From NCBI GenBank assembly GCA_000993565.1, contig LBWK01000002.1, forward strand, positions 4,121 through 68,120: 64,000 nt of DNA, given 5' to 3'. Source of the DNA: a candidate division WS6 bacterium GW2011_GWF2_39_15 (GTDB taxonomy: Bacteria; Patescibacteriota; Dojkabacteria; SC72). This document shows positions 4,212 through 20,324 of the stretch, in pieces. Under the pieces are notes generated by a model that was given only the letters and a program-made list of their open reading frames with translations, was not told the origin of the DNA and did no database searches. Position 1 is the first letter of the stretch. Each line of letters begins with the position of its first letter. The translations under genes were made by a program, and so were the position numbers.

Positions 4212-4301
4212 TGGCGGAGAGGACAGGATTCGAACCTGCGGTACATTTTCATGTACGAACGCTTTCCAAGCGTTTCCTTTCGACCACTCAGGCACCTCTC
4301 C
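4212..4301 (-). tRNA. tRNA-Ser (anticodon GGA), 90 nt with long variable arm
   Basis: Reverse complement reads GGAGAGGTGCCTGAGTGGTCGAAAGGAAACGCTTGGAAAGCGTTCGTACATGAAAATGTACCGCAGGTTCGAATCCTGTCCTCTCCGCCA. Anticodon loop TTGGAAA; long extra arm; T-arm GGTTCGAATCC; encoded CCA. Confidence 0.85.
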
Positions 4302-13410: not shown

Positions 13411-13676
13411 AACATGAGCTATCTGAGAATCATCCGAGGCTGCAGCAATATGCGGACGGAGACTGGGGCATGGAGTTTCTTGAAGACGAAAGGGTTACTA
13501 CGGTGATTGTCTACGGTTTAAATGGAGCGGAGACTCAGGATAAAGGGATAAAAGTCAGAATGAATGAGAACAGTGGCCAGCATTATGAACTCACAATGTT
13601 TTCTGACAATGAGGGTTTTGTTGCGGATTATTCAAATTACTAGCAGACTGTTTTCTTTACTGTTTAGAGCCTTTTC

Positions 13677-13685
13677 TGTTATAAT
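13677..13685 (+). promoter_or_regulatory. Extended -10 promoter element (TGTTATAAT) for the valS leader
   Basis: TGn + TATAAT at 13677-13685; about 270 nt upstream of valS ATG. Confidence 0.45.
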
Positions 13686-13692
13686 CTACTCA

Positions 13693-13930
13693 ACCGCTAT
13701 TACGAAGCTTGTCCCTTCGGAGGTTCAGAGAGAGCTGCTAAGCTATCATAGGTTGGCAGGGTAAATACTGACAGAGGGTGAACTGTAAATACACTACCGT
13801 ATATTAAAATGTACGGACTGAGTGGCGCTATTCTTAAATAGTGCTAGAAAAAAGGTGGTACCACGGTATATCCGTCCTTAAATATGTATAAATGATAATA
13901 TTGTTTATATATATTTGCGGACGGTTTTTT
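13693..13930 (+). promoter_or_regulatory. T-box riboswitch leader (tRNA-sensing antiterminator) upstream of valS
   Basis: 13849-13877 AAGG-UGGUACC-ACGG-uauau-CCGU-CCUU forms a canonical antiterminator (A1 helix, 7-nt UGGUACC bulge, A2 helix). The T-box core GGTGGTACCACGG is at 13854-13866. The overlapping CCGUCC (13872-13877) pairs with GGACGG (13919-13924) followed by TTTTTT (13925-13930) as the competing terminator. An AGAGAGAG AG-box is at 13728-13735. A candidate Val specifier GUA at 13761-13763 is followed by AA. Confidence 0.6.
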
Positions 13931-13948
13931 AATTAAATACAAATAATA

Positions 13949-16261
13949 ATGAGAGACAGCAAAGCAGAAAATATGCCAAAAGCTTTTGATTCCAAATCTC
14001 AGGAAGAGAAGATATATAAACTGTGGGAAGAAAGCGGATACTTTAAACCTGAGAATGTAAAGAAATACCTTGAGGAAAGTAATGAGGAAATAAAGAGACC
14101 CTTTGTTATGACCCTTCCCCCTCCTAATGCCAACGGCGATCTGCATATGGGACATACATGCGGGTACTCGTTCCACGATGCAATGGGAAGGTTTAATCGA
14201 ATGACCGGCCACCCTACTCTCTTAATTGCAGGTAAAGATCACGCAGGAATTCAAACGGAAACGGTTTTCACAAAGAAACTTAAAGCTGAAGGGGTTGATA
14301 AGTGGGAGTTAGGGAGAGATGAATTTAGTAAAAGGTGTTATGAATTTTGTTTGAATGCTGCTGATAATGCTAGAAATCAGGAGAAGAGGATTGGTTTAAG
14401 TGCAGATTGGGAGAGGGAGTTTTTCACACTTGATCCAAGACTTACAGCCGTTGTTTATGAGACATTCTTTATGATGTATAAAGACGGCTTGATATATAGG
14501 GATAAGAGAATTATTAATCAGTGCCCTCATTGTAGAACTGCTTTGGCAGATGTTGATACATATCACAAAGAAATGCCCGGTATTTTTGCGTATATAGTCT
14601 ACCCATTTGTTGATGATAAGGATAAAAAGAGAGCAAAAGAGAGATTCGGAGTTGAGGGTATAACCGTTGCTACAACCCGGCCGGAAACAATGCTTGGGGA
14701 TACAGCTGTTGCCGTAAATCCTAAGGATGACAGGTATAGAGAGTTTATCGGGCATAAAGTTCTTCTTCCGATTGCAGATAGAGAGATTCCAATTATTGGA
14801 GAAGATACAGTTGATATTGAGACAGGAACAGGTGCTCTTAAAGTTACACCTGCCCATTCCCCTGTTGATTTTGAAATAGCAAAGAGACATAACCTTCTAA
14901 TCGTCAACGTAATTAATGAAGAAGGAAAAATGTCCGGTGATATACCGGAACGGTTTAAAGGAATGGAGACAATAGAGTGCTCAAAGGCACTTGTTGATGA
15001 GCTGGATAAGCTGGGTTTATTTTTGAAGATTGAAAGAATTAAGCATGAGGTTGCAGTATGTGAGAGATGCGATACTCCAATCCAACCGATTATCTCCAAC
15101 CAGTGGTATGTAAATACTAAACCACTTGCGGAAAAGGCTCTTGATGCTTTAAAAAATGGAGATACAACTGTTATCCCTGAAGGTCAGCAAAAAGCCTTAA
15201 CTTTCTTCTTTGAAAATATTCAACCATGGTGCATTTCAAGACAGTTATGGTGGGGGCATAGAATTCCTATATGGTATAGCGGGAGCAAAGAGCTACATGA
15301 CTGGATGAGGGATAATCCGGGTAAAACGACTCAGGATTTTGAGAAGGAGGTTGGTAAGGAAGCTCATGGAAGTGGAAAGATATTTGCAAGCGTTGAAAAG
15401 CCGGAGGTTGATCCTGATTGGAACAACGAGAAGAGTTTGCTGTTTGAAGAAGAAACAGATGTTTTTGATACCTGGTTTAGTTCAGGTCAATGGCCGTTTT
15501 CAACAACAACTGCAATTAACGGTTTTGACGAGTACTACCCTACCGATGTAATGGTTCATGGAAGAGATATTCTTTTCTGGTGGAGTGCAAGAATGATGAT
15601 GCTTGGTTTGTATCGAACGGGTAAGGCACCATTCCATACAATATTCTTACATGGAATTATAAACGCGCCGGATGGATCGAAAATGTCTAAATCCAGAGGA
15701 AACACTGTTTCCCCTGTTGAGCTATTTGATAAATACGGAGTTGATTCTCTTCGTCTCTGGTACTACTCTGATGCCCTTCCGGGAGCAAATGCTCCACTTC
15801 GAGAGGAGAAGATTAAGGGGAATAGGAACTTTGTTAACAAGATATGGAATGCAAGCAGGTTTGTAATGATGAATATTGATGATAGTGAGATGGAGGGTGT
15901 CAAAAAGAAACTTGAAGAAGGACATTTCGAAGGCGGAAGAGTGAAGATGACTAAGGAACATATAAAAAAGGTTATCAACTATCTTACAAAGCATCAGTAC
16001 AATCTGGGTGCGGAAGAGATAAGGGAGTTCTTCTGGCATGAATACTGTGATAAATGGATAGAAGAGGTAAAGAATGAGATTAAAGAAGAGGAAGTTGGAA
16101 CTGAGAAGAGATTAAATCTTCTTACTGAGCTTGTTTACCTTCTTAAGGAGAATCTAAAGGCCATGCATCCGTTTATTCCTTATATTACTGAATCTGTATG
16201 GCAGGAATTGGTACTGATGGGGTTAGCAGAGGGAATATTGATGATAGAGCAGATTGTCTGA
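13949..16261 (+). CDS. valS: Valyl-tRNA synthetase (compact form lacking C-terminal coiled coil)
   Basis: 'PPPNANGDLHMGH' (HIGH), 'GKDHAGIQTE', 'KMSKSRGN' (KMSKS); 770 aa. Confidence 0.85.
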   Translation: MRDSKAENMPKAFDSKSQEEKIYKLWEESGYFKPENVKKYLEESNEEIKRPFVMTLPPPNANGDLHMGHTCGYSFHDAMGRFNRMTGHPTLLIAGKDHAGIQTETVFTKKLKAEGVDKWELGRDEFSKRCYEFCLNAADNARNQEKRIGLSADWEREFFTLDPRLTAVVYETFFMMYKDGLIYRDKRIINQCPHCRTALADVDTYHKEMPGIFAYIVYPFVDDKDKKRAKERFGVEGITVATTRPETMLGDTAVAVNPKDDRYREFIGHKVLLPIADREIPIIGEDTVDIETGTGALKVTPAHSPVDFEIAKRHNLLIVNVINEEGKMSGDIPERFKGMETIECSKALVDELDKLGLFLKIERIKHEVAVCERCDTPIQPIISNQWYVNTKPLAEKALDALKNGDTTVIPEGQQKALTFFFENIQPWCISRQLWWGHRIPIWYSGSKELHDWMRDNPGKTTQDFEKEVGKEAHGSGKIFASVEKPEVDPDWNNEKSLLFEEETDVFDTWFSSGQWPFSTTTAINGFDEYYPTDVMVHGRDILFWWSARMMMLGLYRTGKAPFHTIFLHGIINAPDGSKMSKSRGNTVSPVELFDKYGVDSLRLWYYSDALPGANAPLREEKIKGNRNFVNKIWNASRFVMMNIDDSEMEGVKKKLEEGHFEGGRVKMTKEHIKKVINYLTKHQYNLGAEEIREFFWHEYCDKWIEEVKNEIKEEEVGTEKRLNLLTELVYLLKENLKAMHPFIPYITESVWQELVLMGLAEGILMIEQIV

Positions 16262-18170: not shown

Positions 18171-20324
18171 CTATTTTATTTGCGAAAATGCCTCTCCAGG
18201 TTTAGCATCGCCCAGTACTCTGTAGATGCTTGTATCATTATCTCCAATTCCTAGTTCTTTTTCAGATGCAAGCATACCCTCCGATGTAATTCCGAGTAGT
18301 GTTCTGCTTTTTATTACTATTGCCTTTCCTTCTGATGTGAGTTTTGATCCAACAGGGAAATATACAACCTTATCACCTTTTTTTAGGGTAAGGTCGCTGG
18401 TTATCACTTCAGAGTTTTTCTTTCCAATGTTCACAATATAGACACCAAGTTTTTCGGAGTTAGGATGCACCCTTTTCTTTCTTATCTCTCCTACTACTAC
18501 TTGGGTGACGCCTGCCCCTGTTATGTTTTCTATAAGTTCAGCCTCATCTTCTTTCTTTAGTTCTTCAGTATATTCAAGTTTTTCGAATAGTACTTCGGTT
18601 TTTTCTATCTGAGTCCCCGCAACTATTTCAGCAAAGTTCCAATTGTTAATATATTGGGTAACAACACCCTTTTCTTCAAGCTCAATATTCTGGTCGTATT
18701 CATTTTCTATCTTTAGATATTCTCTTACCTTTTCCGATGAAAATGGGAGATATGGCTTAAGAAGTATTCTTAATGCATTAACAATCTGAATTGAATTGTA
18801 GATGGTATTTCCTGCATTCAGTCTATCGTTCTTCACTCTCTCCCATGGTGTATTGTCATTAAAGTACTTGTTTGCGAATTTGCCCAATTCGAGGATACTT
18901 TCTATTGATTGTACAAACTTGCACTCTTCAATGTTCCGACCTGTTTTCTTAAATGTAGTGTTTATCTGTTCTCTGACTTCATCGCTTAATACCCCCTGGG
19001 GTACTACTCCGTCAAACTTTGAGTTAGTGAATGTAAGAACTCGGTTGATAAAATTACCGAGGTTTGCCACCAGTTCGTTATTATTTGCATCTATAAAATC
19101 TTTCCAAATGTATTCCCGGTCATGATTTTCAGGGGCATATTTAACAAAGAAGTACCTGAGAAGATCAGGATTATATCTTTGAAGAACTGATTCAAGAGTT
19201 ATTCCTGTTTTATCACCTTTAGACATTTTCTTTCCCTTGTACATAAGCATCTTGTTAGCAGGAACATCGTACGGGAGATTTAGGGGTTTTGTAGTGGTCT
19301 CTCCTGGAAGTTTATATTTCTCGACGAGTTCAGAGTTAGCATATTTTTGATTGTAAGCAACTATTTCTGCGGGCCAGATTACAGTATGGAAAGGTACATT
19401 GCCTCCTGCAATGAAGTAGTAGTGTTTGCAGGAAGGGTCTTTCCAGAAACTTTCCCAAAGAGAAGGATCGCCCTGCTTTTGTGCCCACTCAATTGCGGCA
19501 GACAGATATCCGACAACAGCTTCAATCCACACATATACAACCTTTTCCTCCCACCCTTCTACTGGAACGGGTATTCCAAAATTCAAGTCTCTTGTAACGG
19601 CTCTTGGTTCGAGTCCCTGCTTTAACCAACCTCTTGTAAACTCACGAACCCACTTTCTCCAAGGCTCATCACTTGTTTTTACCCACTTTGATATTTCAGG
19701 CTGCAGTTTTGAGAGATTGAGGTAGAAATGGTCGGTTTTCTTTAGCTTCGGCTTAGAATCCGAAAGCGTACTATACGGATCAATTAAATCTTCAGGATTC
19801 AGATATGCTCCGCACTCCGGACACTCATCCCCCCGGGCGTTTTGAGCTCCGCATTTGGGGCAAGTACCTCTTACATATCTGTCTGGGAGATATCTTTTAA
19901 CTTTTGAATCATAATACTGTTCGGACTGCTTTACCTCTAGATATCCAAGTTCCTTTAGTGCCAGAAAGATGTTTTGTACAACGGTTTTGTGATTCTCGGT
20001 TGTAGTTTTTGTGTAGTTCTCATACAAGAGTCCAAGTTTTTTGAATGTTTTGACAATTTCCTGATGTGCTTCCTCTGCATATTTTGCAGGTGTTGTTCCT
20101 ACCTCTTCCGCCTTAAATATTACAGGAGCTCCATGGCTGTCGCTTCCCGAAACCATAAGAACTCTATTTCCTTTAAGTCTGTGATATCTGGCAAACACAT
20201 CTGTTACGATATTCTGTCCTGCCAAATGTCCAAGGTGAATATTCCCGTTGGCATAAGGCCAAGACACTCCTATAAATATTTTTTCTTGCTTTGAGTTCGC
20301 AACTTGCATAATCGCATTATACAA
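18171..20324 (-). CDS. metG: Methionyl-tRNA synthetase with C-terminal EMAP/Trbp111-type tRNA-binding domain
   Basis: 'ANGNIHLGHLAG' (HIGH), Zn knuckle 'CPKCGAQNARGDECPECG', 'KKMSKGDKTG' (KMSKS), C-terminal OB-fold 'VVVGEIRKKRVHPNSEKL...'. Confidence 0.9.
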   Translation of the reverse strand: MYNAIMQVANSKQEKIFIGVSWPYANGNIHLGHLAGQNIVTDVFARYHRLKGNRVLMVSGSDSHGAPVIFKAEEVGTTPAKYAEEAHQEIVKTFKKLGLLYENYTKTTTENHKTVVQNIFLALKELGYLEVKQSEQYYDSKVKRYLPDRYVRGTCPKCGAQNARGDECPECGAYLNPEDLIDPYSTLSDSKPKLKKTDHFYLNLSKLQPEISKWVKTSDEPWRKWVREFTRGWLKQGLEPRAVTRDLNFGIPVPVEGWEEKVVYVWIEAVVGYLSAAIEWAQKQGDPSLWESFWKDPSCKHYYFIAGGNVPFHTVIWPAEIVAYNQKYANSELVEKYKLPGETTTKPLNLPYDVPANKMLMYKGKKMSKGDKTGITLESVLQRYNPDLLRYFFVKYAPENHDREYIWKDFIDANNNELVANLGNFINRVLTFTNSKFDGVVPQGVLSDEVREQINTTFKKTGRNIEECKFVQSIESILELGKFANKYFNDNTPWERVKNDRLNAGNTIYNSIQIVNALRILLKPYLPFSSEKVREYLKIENEYDQNIELEEKGVVTQYINNWNFAEIVAGTQIEKTEVLFEKLEYTEELKKEDEAELIENITGAGVTQVVVGEIRKKRVHPNSEKLGVYIVNIGKKNSEVITSDLTLKKGDKVVYFPVGSKLTSEGKAIVIKSRTLLGITSEGMLASEKELGIGDNDTSIYRVLGDAKPGEAFSQIK

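Follow-up and report, generated by a model that had tools for sequence, protein, structure and literature searches.

The leader of valS at 13677-13930 of a 64,000-nucleotide (nt) stretch of contig LBWK01000002.1 (hereafter the window), from the candidate division WS6 bacterium GW2011_GWF2_39_15, is very probably a valine-specific T-box riboswitch that controls its gene by transcription attenuation and reads its tRNA through a minimal decoding module. The regulated gene encodes a valyl-tRNA synthetase (ValRS) of 770 amino acids (13949-16261, + strand, on which all features of the leader also lie), with matches to NCBIfam NF004349 (796.5 bits, cut-off 704), TIGR00422 (767 bits) and Pfam tRNA-synt_1. 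We established directly that the secondary structure of the leader is conserved and covarying, that its GUC codon and UGGU motif are invariant, that its antiterminator and terminator are mutually exclusive, and that the element is linked to valS. In its discriminator half and output the leader is a canonical transcriptional T-box, and in its decoding half it belongs to the 'ultrashort' Stem I class. The combination of a short Stem I with a terminator, a valine specificity and a lineage of the candidate phyla radiation (CPR), the Dojkabacteria, appears to be new, with the reservation that Sherwood 2015, Battaglia 2019 or Vitreschak 2008 may list a terminator-type ultrashort T-box. A preliminary description of the window had proposed a T-box leader of valS that senses tRNA-Val, with terminator/antiterminator competition, in a CPR-type genome, a proposal that the analysis supported.

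The antiterminator occupies 13852-13879 and is built of two helices, A1 (AAGG, 13852-13855, with CCUU, 13876-13879) and A2 (ACGG, 13863-13866, with CCGU, 13872-13875). Between them on the 5' side lies the 7-nt T-box bulge UGGUACC (13856-13862), whose UGGU can pair with the 3' ACCA end of a tRNA, and a 5-nt loop joins the A2 strands. The sequence AAGGUGGUACCACG at 13852-13865 is identical to the conserved 14-nt T-box sequence AGGGUGGNACCGCG at 12 of 14 positions, and the G-to-A change at position 12 is compensated by its pairing partner. Downstream, an intrinsic terminator spans 13872-13930, comprising a hairpin (13872-13924) with CCGUCC (13872-13877) paired to GGACGG (13919-13924) below a long AU-rich upper stem, followed by U6 (13925-13930). 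Positions 13872-13879 are common to both structures, forming the 3' half of the antiterminator and the 5' half of the terminator, so that the two are mutually exclusive; their folding energies are -5.3 and -25.1 kcal/mol, respectively. Both hairpins, as well as the shared strand, had been recognised in the preliminary description and were confirmed at these positions, as was the mutual exclusion that it had suggested checking by folding. Weak matches of several plant and animal microRNA precursor families to 13871-13927 (e.g. mir-1277, 29 bits) were rejected as an artefact of the long AU-rich terminator hairpin.

Comparison with related loci placed the leader in a family. The closest valS loci among one-genome-per-species contigs belong to metagenome-assembled genomes of Candidatus Dojkabacteria (WS6), with 80-84% protein identity, and six valS loci of other CPR groups gave no match. 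Scanning metagenomes with a pattern derived from the pseudoknot and the T-box sequence returned 73 contigs, comprising 54 with a human-gut Firmicute valS T-box of canonical build, ten with further Dojkabacteria-type valS leaders, and the rest with leaders of other synthetase genes. After removal of duplicates the family consists of 18 non-identical leaders including that of the window. Dojkabacteria assemblies with the leader include PHAO01000001.1 (734 kb) and JACPFP010000003.1 (507 kb). Ten of the 17 further members come from Dojkabacteria-type genomes and seven from metagenome contigs; 16 stand directly upstream of valS and one (L019; L-numbers are labels of fetched loci and leaders) is separated from it by a small open reading frame (ORF).

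RNAalifold, run on a plain MAFFT alignment of the family, predicted the 5-bp 5' hairpin, pseudoknot helix IIA, Stem III and A2 unaided. We then built a covariance model, R1, on the proposed structure. R1 scored the 18 leaders at 107-163 bits (window, 120) and gave a single match in the window; its scores were lower for other leaders with a short Stem I (36-66 bits) and for canonical Firmicute valS T-boxes (no more than 35 bits). In the model-guided alignment 97.9% of 482 cells form standard pairs, compared with 81.4% in shuffles (0 of 500 reaching the observed value), and 19 of the 27 family pairs change on both sides; the count is limited to helices in register, and the alignment was fitted to the structure, so these figures lean towards it. 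When the 3' partners were slid by 1-3 columns as a control, only 35-48% of cells were paired. That the covariation signal is genuine is supported by the independent RNAalifold prediction and by the slid controls. MAFFT alone mis-registers the 5' strand of Stem II, helix IIB and a linker hairpin, X, because linker lengths differ, and the covariance model mended only some of the rows; these helices were therefore analysed by script and excluded from the formal pair count.

Both halves of the switch are conserved across the family. A1 is paired in 100% and A2 in 95.8% of cells, the A2 pair 191-216 being G-C in ten members and A-U in eight, and UGGU is invariant in all 18. The window bulge retains UGGUACC; in 11 members (L012, L014, L019, L025, L029, L058, L060, L061, L106, L110 and L112) this near-universal sequence is replaced by UGGUAAC or UGGUAUC, and in ten of these A2 has also changed from ACGG/CCGU to GCGN/NCGC, with L014 retaining ACGG. 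The 12 terminators that were folded whole have energies of -23 to -34 kcal/mol, compared with -4 to -6 kcal/mol for the antiterminators. Those of L002, L012, L049, L061 and L112 were read from the sequence, since the script halted at an internal T-run and the real end is the next T-run.

Given the short Stem I, we considered whether the output of the same aptamer might be mainly translational, or be of some other kind (through a sequestering hairpin, Rho or RNA stability), instead of intrinsic termination. All ultrashort-Stem-I T-boxes described earlier act in this way, and the literature ties a short Stem I to translational control. However, in all 17 leaders with a complete 3' end the last element is a G+C-based hairpin with a U-run immediately after it (U4 in L019 and U5-8 in the others), and these hairpins end 18-35 nt before the start codon with no ribosome-binding site inside them. 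In addition, the L019 leader (1867-2007, +) is followed by an ORF of about 130 amino acids and unknown function at about 2083-2480, with valS starting at 2499. The leader would thus control a two-gene transcript, and translational control of valS could not bridge the intervening ORF, which fits transcriptional rather than translational control. An output other than intrinsic termination is, on these grounds, unlikely.

The decoding half of the leader opens with the Stem I module (13694-13723). Its base helix pairs CC (13694-13695) with GG (13722-13723), above which a 7-nt 5' loop, GCUAUUA (13696-13702), lies opposite GA (13720-13721) in an arrangement resembling a kink-turn (K-turn). A 5-bp hairpin follows, CGAAG (13703-13707) pairing with CUUCG (13715-13719) around the 7-nt terminal loop CUUGUCC (13708-13714). 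This hairpin is also present in the single-sequence minimum-free-energy fold of the window, each of its five pairs changes on both sides in some member, and the base pair 1-30 changes from C-G to U-A in three members. Loop positions 4-6 (13711-13713) hold the specifier codon GUC (Val), which matches the downstream valS. The terminal loop of the family reads NNN-GUC-R, with GUC invariant in 18 of 18 members and the three preceding bases variable. GUC occupies the apical-loop specifier position used by TBDB, bases 2-4 from the 3' end of the loop, and is in line with the preference of T-box specifiers for C at the third position (PMC7583486).

The preliminary description had expected a different Stem I, with a K-turn and an internal specifier loop carrying a candidate Val codon. 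GUN triplets do occur upstream of the antiterminator, and GUC sits in a covarying Stem I, but it does so in the terminal loop of a 5-bp hairpin; the expected Stem I does not exist. We found neither an AG bulge nor a distal-loop platform (interdigitated T-loops) for the tRNA elbow in the valS leader structure, and therefore the elbow contact of canonical transcriptional T-boxes is missing.

Stem II (13725-13771) has a lower helix of UCAG (13725-13728) with CUGA (13768-13771), an S-turn whose strands in the window are AGAGAG (13729-13734) and GGUAAAUA (13760-13767), and an apical hairpin at 13735-13759 that appears in the centroid fold. The lower helix (4 or 5 bp) is fully paired in every one of the 18 leaders and occurs in at least ten sequence versions. 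The S-turn consensus of the family, 5' AAGAA and 3' AGUAGAA, corresponds to the loop-E GAA/AGUA arrangement, which is also found in the Stem II consensus of Rfam. The run AGAGAGAG at 13727-13734, described earlier as an AG-box, is present; however, it is the S-turn's 5' strand in Stem II rather than the AG bulge of Stem I, since AGAGAG aligns with the family AAGAA that faces AGUAGAA across Stem II.

An H-type pseudoknot, Stem IIA/B (13772-13795), follows directly, in which IIA pairs CAG (13772-13774) with CUG (13783-13785) and IIB pairs GGUG (13777-13780) with CACU (13792-13795). It contains the F-box-like conserved stretch ACUGUAAA. IIA is 100% paired in the family, including as CGG/CCG in L025. 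The sequence of IIB differs in nearly every member with complementarity kept, and the case for this helix rests on that, as single-sequence shuffle p-values are weak (0.005 to about 1); L049 has only a weak 3-bp CUU/AAG option. The linker carries hairpin X (13797-13816, CCGUAUA/UGUACGG), seen in the centroid fold and in 14 of the 18 members, with compensating changes such as CCAUA/UAUGG and CUGUG/CACAG that were read by eye and not scored by a tool. X is absent from L019, L029, L049 and L110, and in these four members, whose 3' stretch was clipped by the script, IIB was read by eye. The family alignment further places the conserved purines GAG, the 'RAG' motif (13820-13822), ahead of Stem III (13824-13845). 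Each of the nine Stem III pairs varies on both sides in at least one member, with 98.7% of cells paired. The RAG motif and its role have been described (PMC11297988, PMC7583486).

These data allow us to propose a mechanism by analogy with solved T-box-tRNA complexes (PMC7583486, PMC10651847, PMC11297988); from such structures and from genetics we infer that tRNA is bound, that the S-turn docks, that charged and uncharged tRNA are told apart, and in which direction the switch regulates. A promoter-like site at 13656-13685 (TTTACT, an 18-nt spacer and the extended -10 element TGtTATAAT) matches the consensus at 10 of 12 positions and carries TG before the -10, and transcription of the leader likely starts at about 13692. 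The equivalent TGnTATAAT stands 6-9 nt before the first helix in 17 of the 18 leaders and 17 nt before it in L023. From this start, the 5-bp Stem I hairpin would present GUC in its terminal loop, where the codon could pair with the anticodon of tRNA-Val(GAC). The S-turn of Stem II, held by the IIA/B pseudoknot, would dock on the codon-anticodon duplex, its purine string strengthening this short duplex from the minor-groove side, while the pseudoknot would stack below Stem II and set the geometry. Stem III, the RAG purines and the bulge UGGU would then capture the uncharged ACCA end, with A as its discriminator base, stabilising the antiterminator and permitting transcription of valS. With the tRNA charged or absent, the far more stable terminator (13872-13924 plus U6) would form and transcription would stop. 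Published structures of short-Stem-I ileS T-boxes show that an apical specifier loop, an S-turn and a IIA/B pseudoknot suffice for tRNA binding (PMC7583486, PMC10651847).

Several points weigh against this assignment. About 15 Dojkabacteria valS loci with a complete upstream region are without the element and have only a promoter, placed after a divergent gene. A tRNA-Val gene was found neither in the window nor in the 45 fetched loci, for which reason the anticodon GAC implied by GUC and the discriminator A73 implied by UGGU are assumed. Bacterial tRNA-Val generally has A73. At the junction at the base of Stem I, A9 (position 2b of the four-position K-turn signature) and A28 (1n) are invariant and G27 (2n) is found in 17 of 18 members, but position 1b is U in 16, G in L014 and C in L110, and the loop is of 4-5 nt rather than 3. 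The junction is at most a possible K-turn, and a K-turn has been called essential for short Stem I-Stem II conjugates (PMC7583486). The same review holds that transcriptional T-boxes generally need a long Stem I with an elbow-binding double T-loop, a need explained by the short time available for tRNA capture (PMC7583486); by that account a short Stem I joined to a terminator should perform poorly, and the kinetic competence of the valS leader is uncertain. Finally, the base after GUC is A in 15 members and G in one, and is C, not a purine, in the window and L001, and the window S-turn is the most degenerate of the family when set against the AAGAA/AGUAGAA consensus.

The last two features, the pyrimidine after the codon and the degenerate S-turn, would fit a reading of the window copy as a decaying relic, insensitive to tRNA and at most a constitutive partial terminator, within a family that is functional elsewhere. 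The R1 score of the window is also among the lowest of the family, and the element has been lost repeatedly in the lineage. This reading is nevertheless highly improbable, given that in the window no helix is broken, the promoter spacing and the terminator are preserved, GUC, the RAG purines and the UGGUACC bulge are all in place, and both S-turn strands keep their purine character. Moreover, a terminator of -25 kcal/mol that could not be overridden would shut off an essential single-copy gene.

The Rfam model RF00230 matches 13688-13882 over its full length at 36.3 bits, with E = 1.2e-6 for a 391-nt stretch and 1.9e-4 for the whole window, a significant match that is below the curated gathering score of 93 bits. 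Because 36.3 bits is so far below this score, the default Rfam scan of the window returned no T-box and one tRNA only, and the element emerges only when an E-value threshold is used. Nine of ten related loci scanned scored 32.6-52.6 bits, all under the gathering score, and L012 gave no match at E ≤ 0.01. The preliminary description had staked its assignment on an RF00230 match and a Stem I bearing a GUN codon, and both were found. The fold of the whole leader is also more stable than 200 of 200 dinucleotide shuffles (z = -3.97). In the Rfam alignment of the window, posterior probability is high throughout the 3' half (Stem III, T-box sequence and antiterminator), the antiterminator being the best-aligned part; the 5' half is aligned with low posterior probability, the distal loop being deleted and a long Stem I imposed. 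A canonical long-Stem-I T-box as so aligned, with Stem I at about 13693-13778, AGAGAG as the AG bulge, CUUGUC (13708-13713) able to pair with GGCAGG (13755-13760) in the window, and a Val codon (e.g. GUA, 13761-13763) near the specifier position of the model in an internal loop, is scarcely credible and was rejected on the family alignment, since for the most part these columns do not pair in the remaining 17 leaders, the GUA belongs to the conserved S-turn of Stem II, the whole distal loop is dropped, and the comparative data contradict it, the short GUC hairpin covarying at five of five pairs.

The short-Stem-I valS leader shares its discriminator with canonical transcriptional T-boxes (RF00230; Bacillus subtilis tyrS; the Firmicute valS leaders L050, L047 and L048), including the 7-nt bulge, UGGN-NCCA pairing, A1/A2, Stem III with flanking purines, and terminator/antiterminator competition with a U-tract. 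It further resembles them in having a GAA/AGUA S-turn in Stem II, a IIA/B pseudoknot, a specifier ending in C and an aminoacyl-tRNA synthetase target. In contrast to them, it is without a long Stem I, internal specifier loop, AG bulge and distal-loop double T-loop platform, its junction is not a canonical GA-motif K-turn, and its host belongs to the CPR and not the Firmicutes. The decoding half instead resembles the actinobacterial 'ultrashort' ileS T-boxes (Mycobacterium tuberculosis, PDB 6UFG; Nocardia farcinica, PDB 6UFM), in which a short Stem I likewise presents the specifier in its apical loop, immediately ahead of the stem's 3' strand. The two also share dependence on an S-turn Stem II and IIA/B pseudoknot, the absence of an elbow platform, a decoding module of about 100 nt and the same discriminator core. 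They differ in that the valS leader has GUC rather than AUC and serves valS rather than ileS, has a non-canonical K-turn-like junction and, in most members, an extra linker hairpin, and belongs to a different phylum; R1 scores the ileS-type leader L055 at only 39 bits. Their outputs also differ, the valS leader ending in a terminator and U-tract in place of the Shine-Dalgarno-sequestering hairpin of the actinobacterial ileS leaders (PMC1262725, PMC7583486, PMC12990946). Like the glyQS T-boxes of Bacillus and Geobacillus, the valS leader combines transcriptional output with an architecture reduced relative to the full T-box; however, glyQS keeps the long Stem I and elbow platform and drops Stem II and IIA/B, whereas the valS leader does the reverse.

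To place the element in the history of the lineage we examined a neighbour-joining ValRS tree, which is rough and has no support values. T-box-bearing lineages are basal and paraphyletic in the Dojkabacteria group, with T-box-less clades nested among them, and this suggests a valS T-box that was ancestral in Dojkabacteria and lost several times, and not one acquired by recent transfer. T-boxes have been described from Firmicutes, with further examples in Actinobacteria, Chloroflexi, Deinococcus-Thermus and two delta-proteobacteria (PMC2494555; TBDB), and full-text literature searches for T-box together with CPR, Patescibacteria or individual CPR phyla returned no paper linking them. Rfam-based annotation and TBDB-style pipelines would miss the valS leader family. 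As its members score far under the gathering score, the distribution of T-boxes in uncultured phyla is probably underestimated.

CPR organisms are regarded as relying on other organisms for their amino acids. A leader that directly senses the charging of tRNA-Val, placed before the gene of an essential synthetase, would show how one of them monitors this supply. Truncation of Stem I has been associated with slower, reversible translational control (PMC7583486), and with an ultrashort Stem I and an intrinsic terminator united in one natural family, the kinetic argument for the elbow platform can be tested directly. It is conceivable, although somewhat short of probable, that these leaders represent an unrecognised class of T-box that terminates co-transcriptionally without contacting the tRNA elbow, is old in Dojkabacteria and serves other synthetase genes in uncultured bacteria, such as the proS gene of L101, whose leader has CCG in its apical loop and a terminator. 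If so, transcriptional T-boxes would not in general require the elbow platform, and the riboswitch may have had the minimal decoding module as its older form.

The ValRS encoded in the window is short, matching positions 2-685 of the 860-position NCBIfam profile, and the Pfam C-terminal coiled-coil domain was not found in it; for these reasons the Dojkabacteria ValRS seems, judged from the protein sequence, to be without the usual C-terminal tRNA-binding coiled coil. A look-up for an identical protein product of the window ValRS returned no record. On the opposite strand, at a distance of 2 kb from valS, is metG (18171-20324, -), whose product carries a C-terminal tRNA-binding domain; metG gave no T-box match with either Rfam or R1. 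In several relatives metG directly follows valS, with only a promoter between them. The only tRNA gene in the window is that for tRNA-Ser(GGA) (4212-4301, -). A tRNA-Ser(GGA) and tRNA-Arg(UCU) pair is located within about 4-8 kb of the valS leader in three relatives (L058, 9579-9745; L106, 5126-5293; L112, 6794-6957), which indicates a conserved local gene order.

The searches also returned leaders outside the family. Fifty-four human-gut contigs, among them L050 (3374-3498, +), carry a canonical long-Stem-I Firmicute valS T-box. This T-box and the Dojkabacteria leaders have the pseudoknot motif CAGA-N6-ACUGUAAA in common, which may be a signature of valine leaders or a trace of common descent. 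L055 (1401-1575, -) and L113 (4597-4771, +) carry a G+C-rich ileS leader of the known ultrashort type, whose 6-nt apical loop contains AUC-A and which shows no obvious U-tract; its junction, GC-GCCAUUAU ... GA-GC, is non-canonical in shape, as in the Dojkabacteria valS leaders. The ultrashort ileS T-boxes were reportedly described by Sherwood et al. 2015, as cited in later papers.

The metagenome leader L101 (70-227, +) precedes proS, which starts at 285 (TIGR00408, 597 bits), and is laid out as the valS leaders are. A short Stem I, formed by AGAGG/CCUCU, carries the terminal loop UACCCGG (Pro CCG or CCC) and is followed by GGAG; Stem II is small and lacks an S-turn, and a IIA/B pseudoknot, a UGGUAAC bulge and a terminator with U7 are present. 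The missing S-turn and all-G/C codon agree with a published proposal by which only A/U-rich codons require Stem II. A further T-box-like leader, L063 (1730-1870, -), stands on a 1.01-Mb contig and scores 66.5 bits with R1 and 52.6 bits with RF00230; its short Stem I (CUGGA/UCCAG) bears the loop GUCGCGA, where the position rule gives GCG-A, its Stem II is strongly reduced, and it has a terminator. Neither of the ORFs that follow it (84 and 150 amino acids) matched an NCBIfam family. L118 (445-602, -) has the apical loop CACCUAA (CUA-A, possibly Leu), an insertion in A2 and a terminator with U8, on a contig that stops before a recognisable downstream gene.

Three alaS leaders (NF002436, 540 bits) were also met, in L065 (9726-9882, -), L067 (563-756, +) and L072 (2428-2585, -). 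They have a truncated Stem I and no U-tract, and their GCC-A lies in an internal loop, above which a 4-bp helix ends in a GAAA tetraloop. Just before their AUG, the 9-nt sequence CUUAUUAGG is an exact complement of CCUAAUAAG, a stretch on the 5' flank of Stem III that takes in the RAG purines, and this complementarity suggests that the alaS leaders may sequester the ribosome-binding site in an unusual way.

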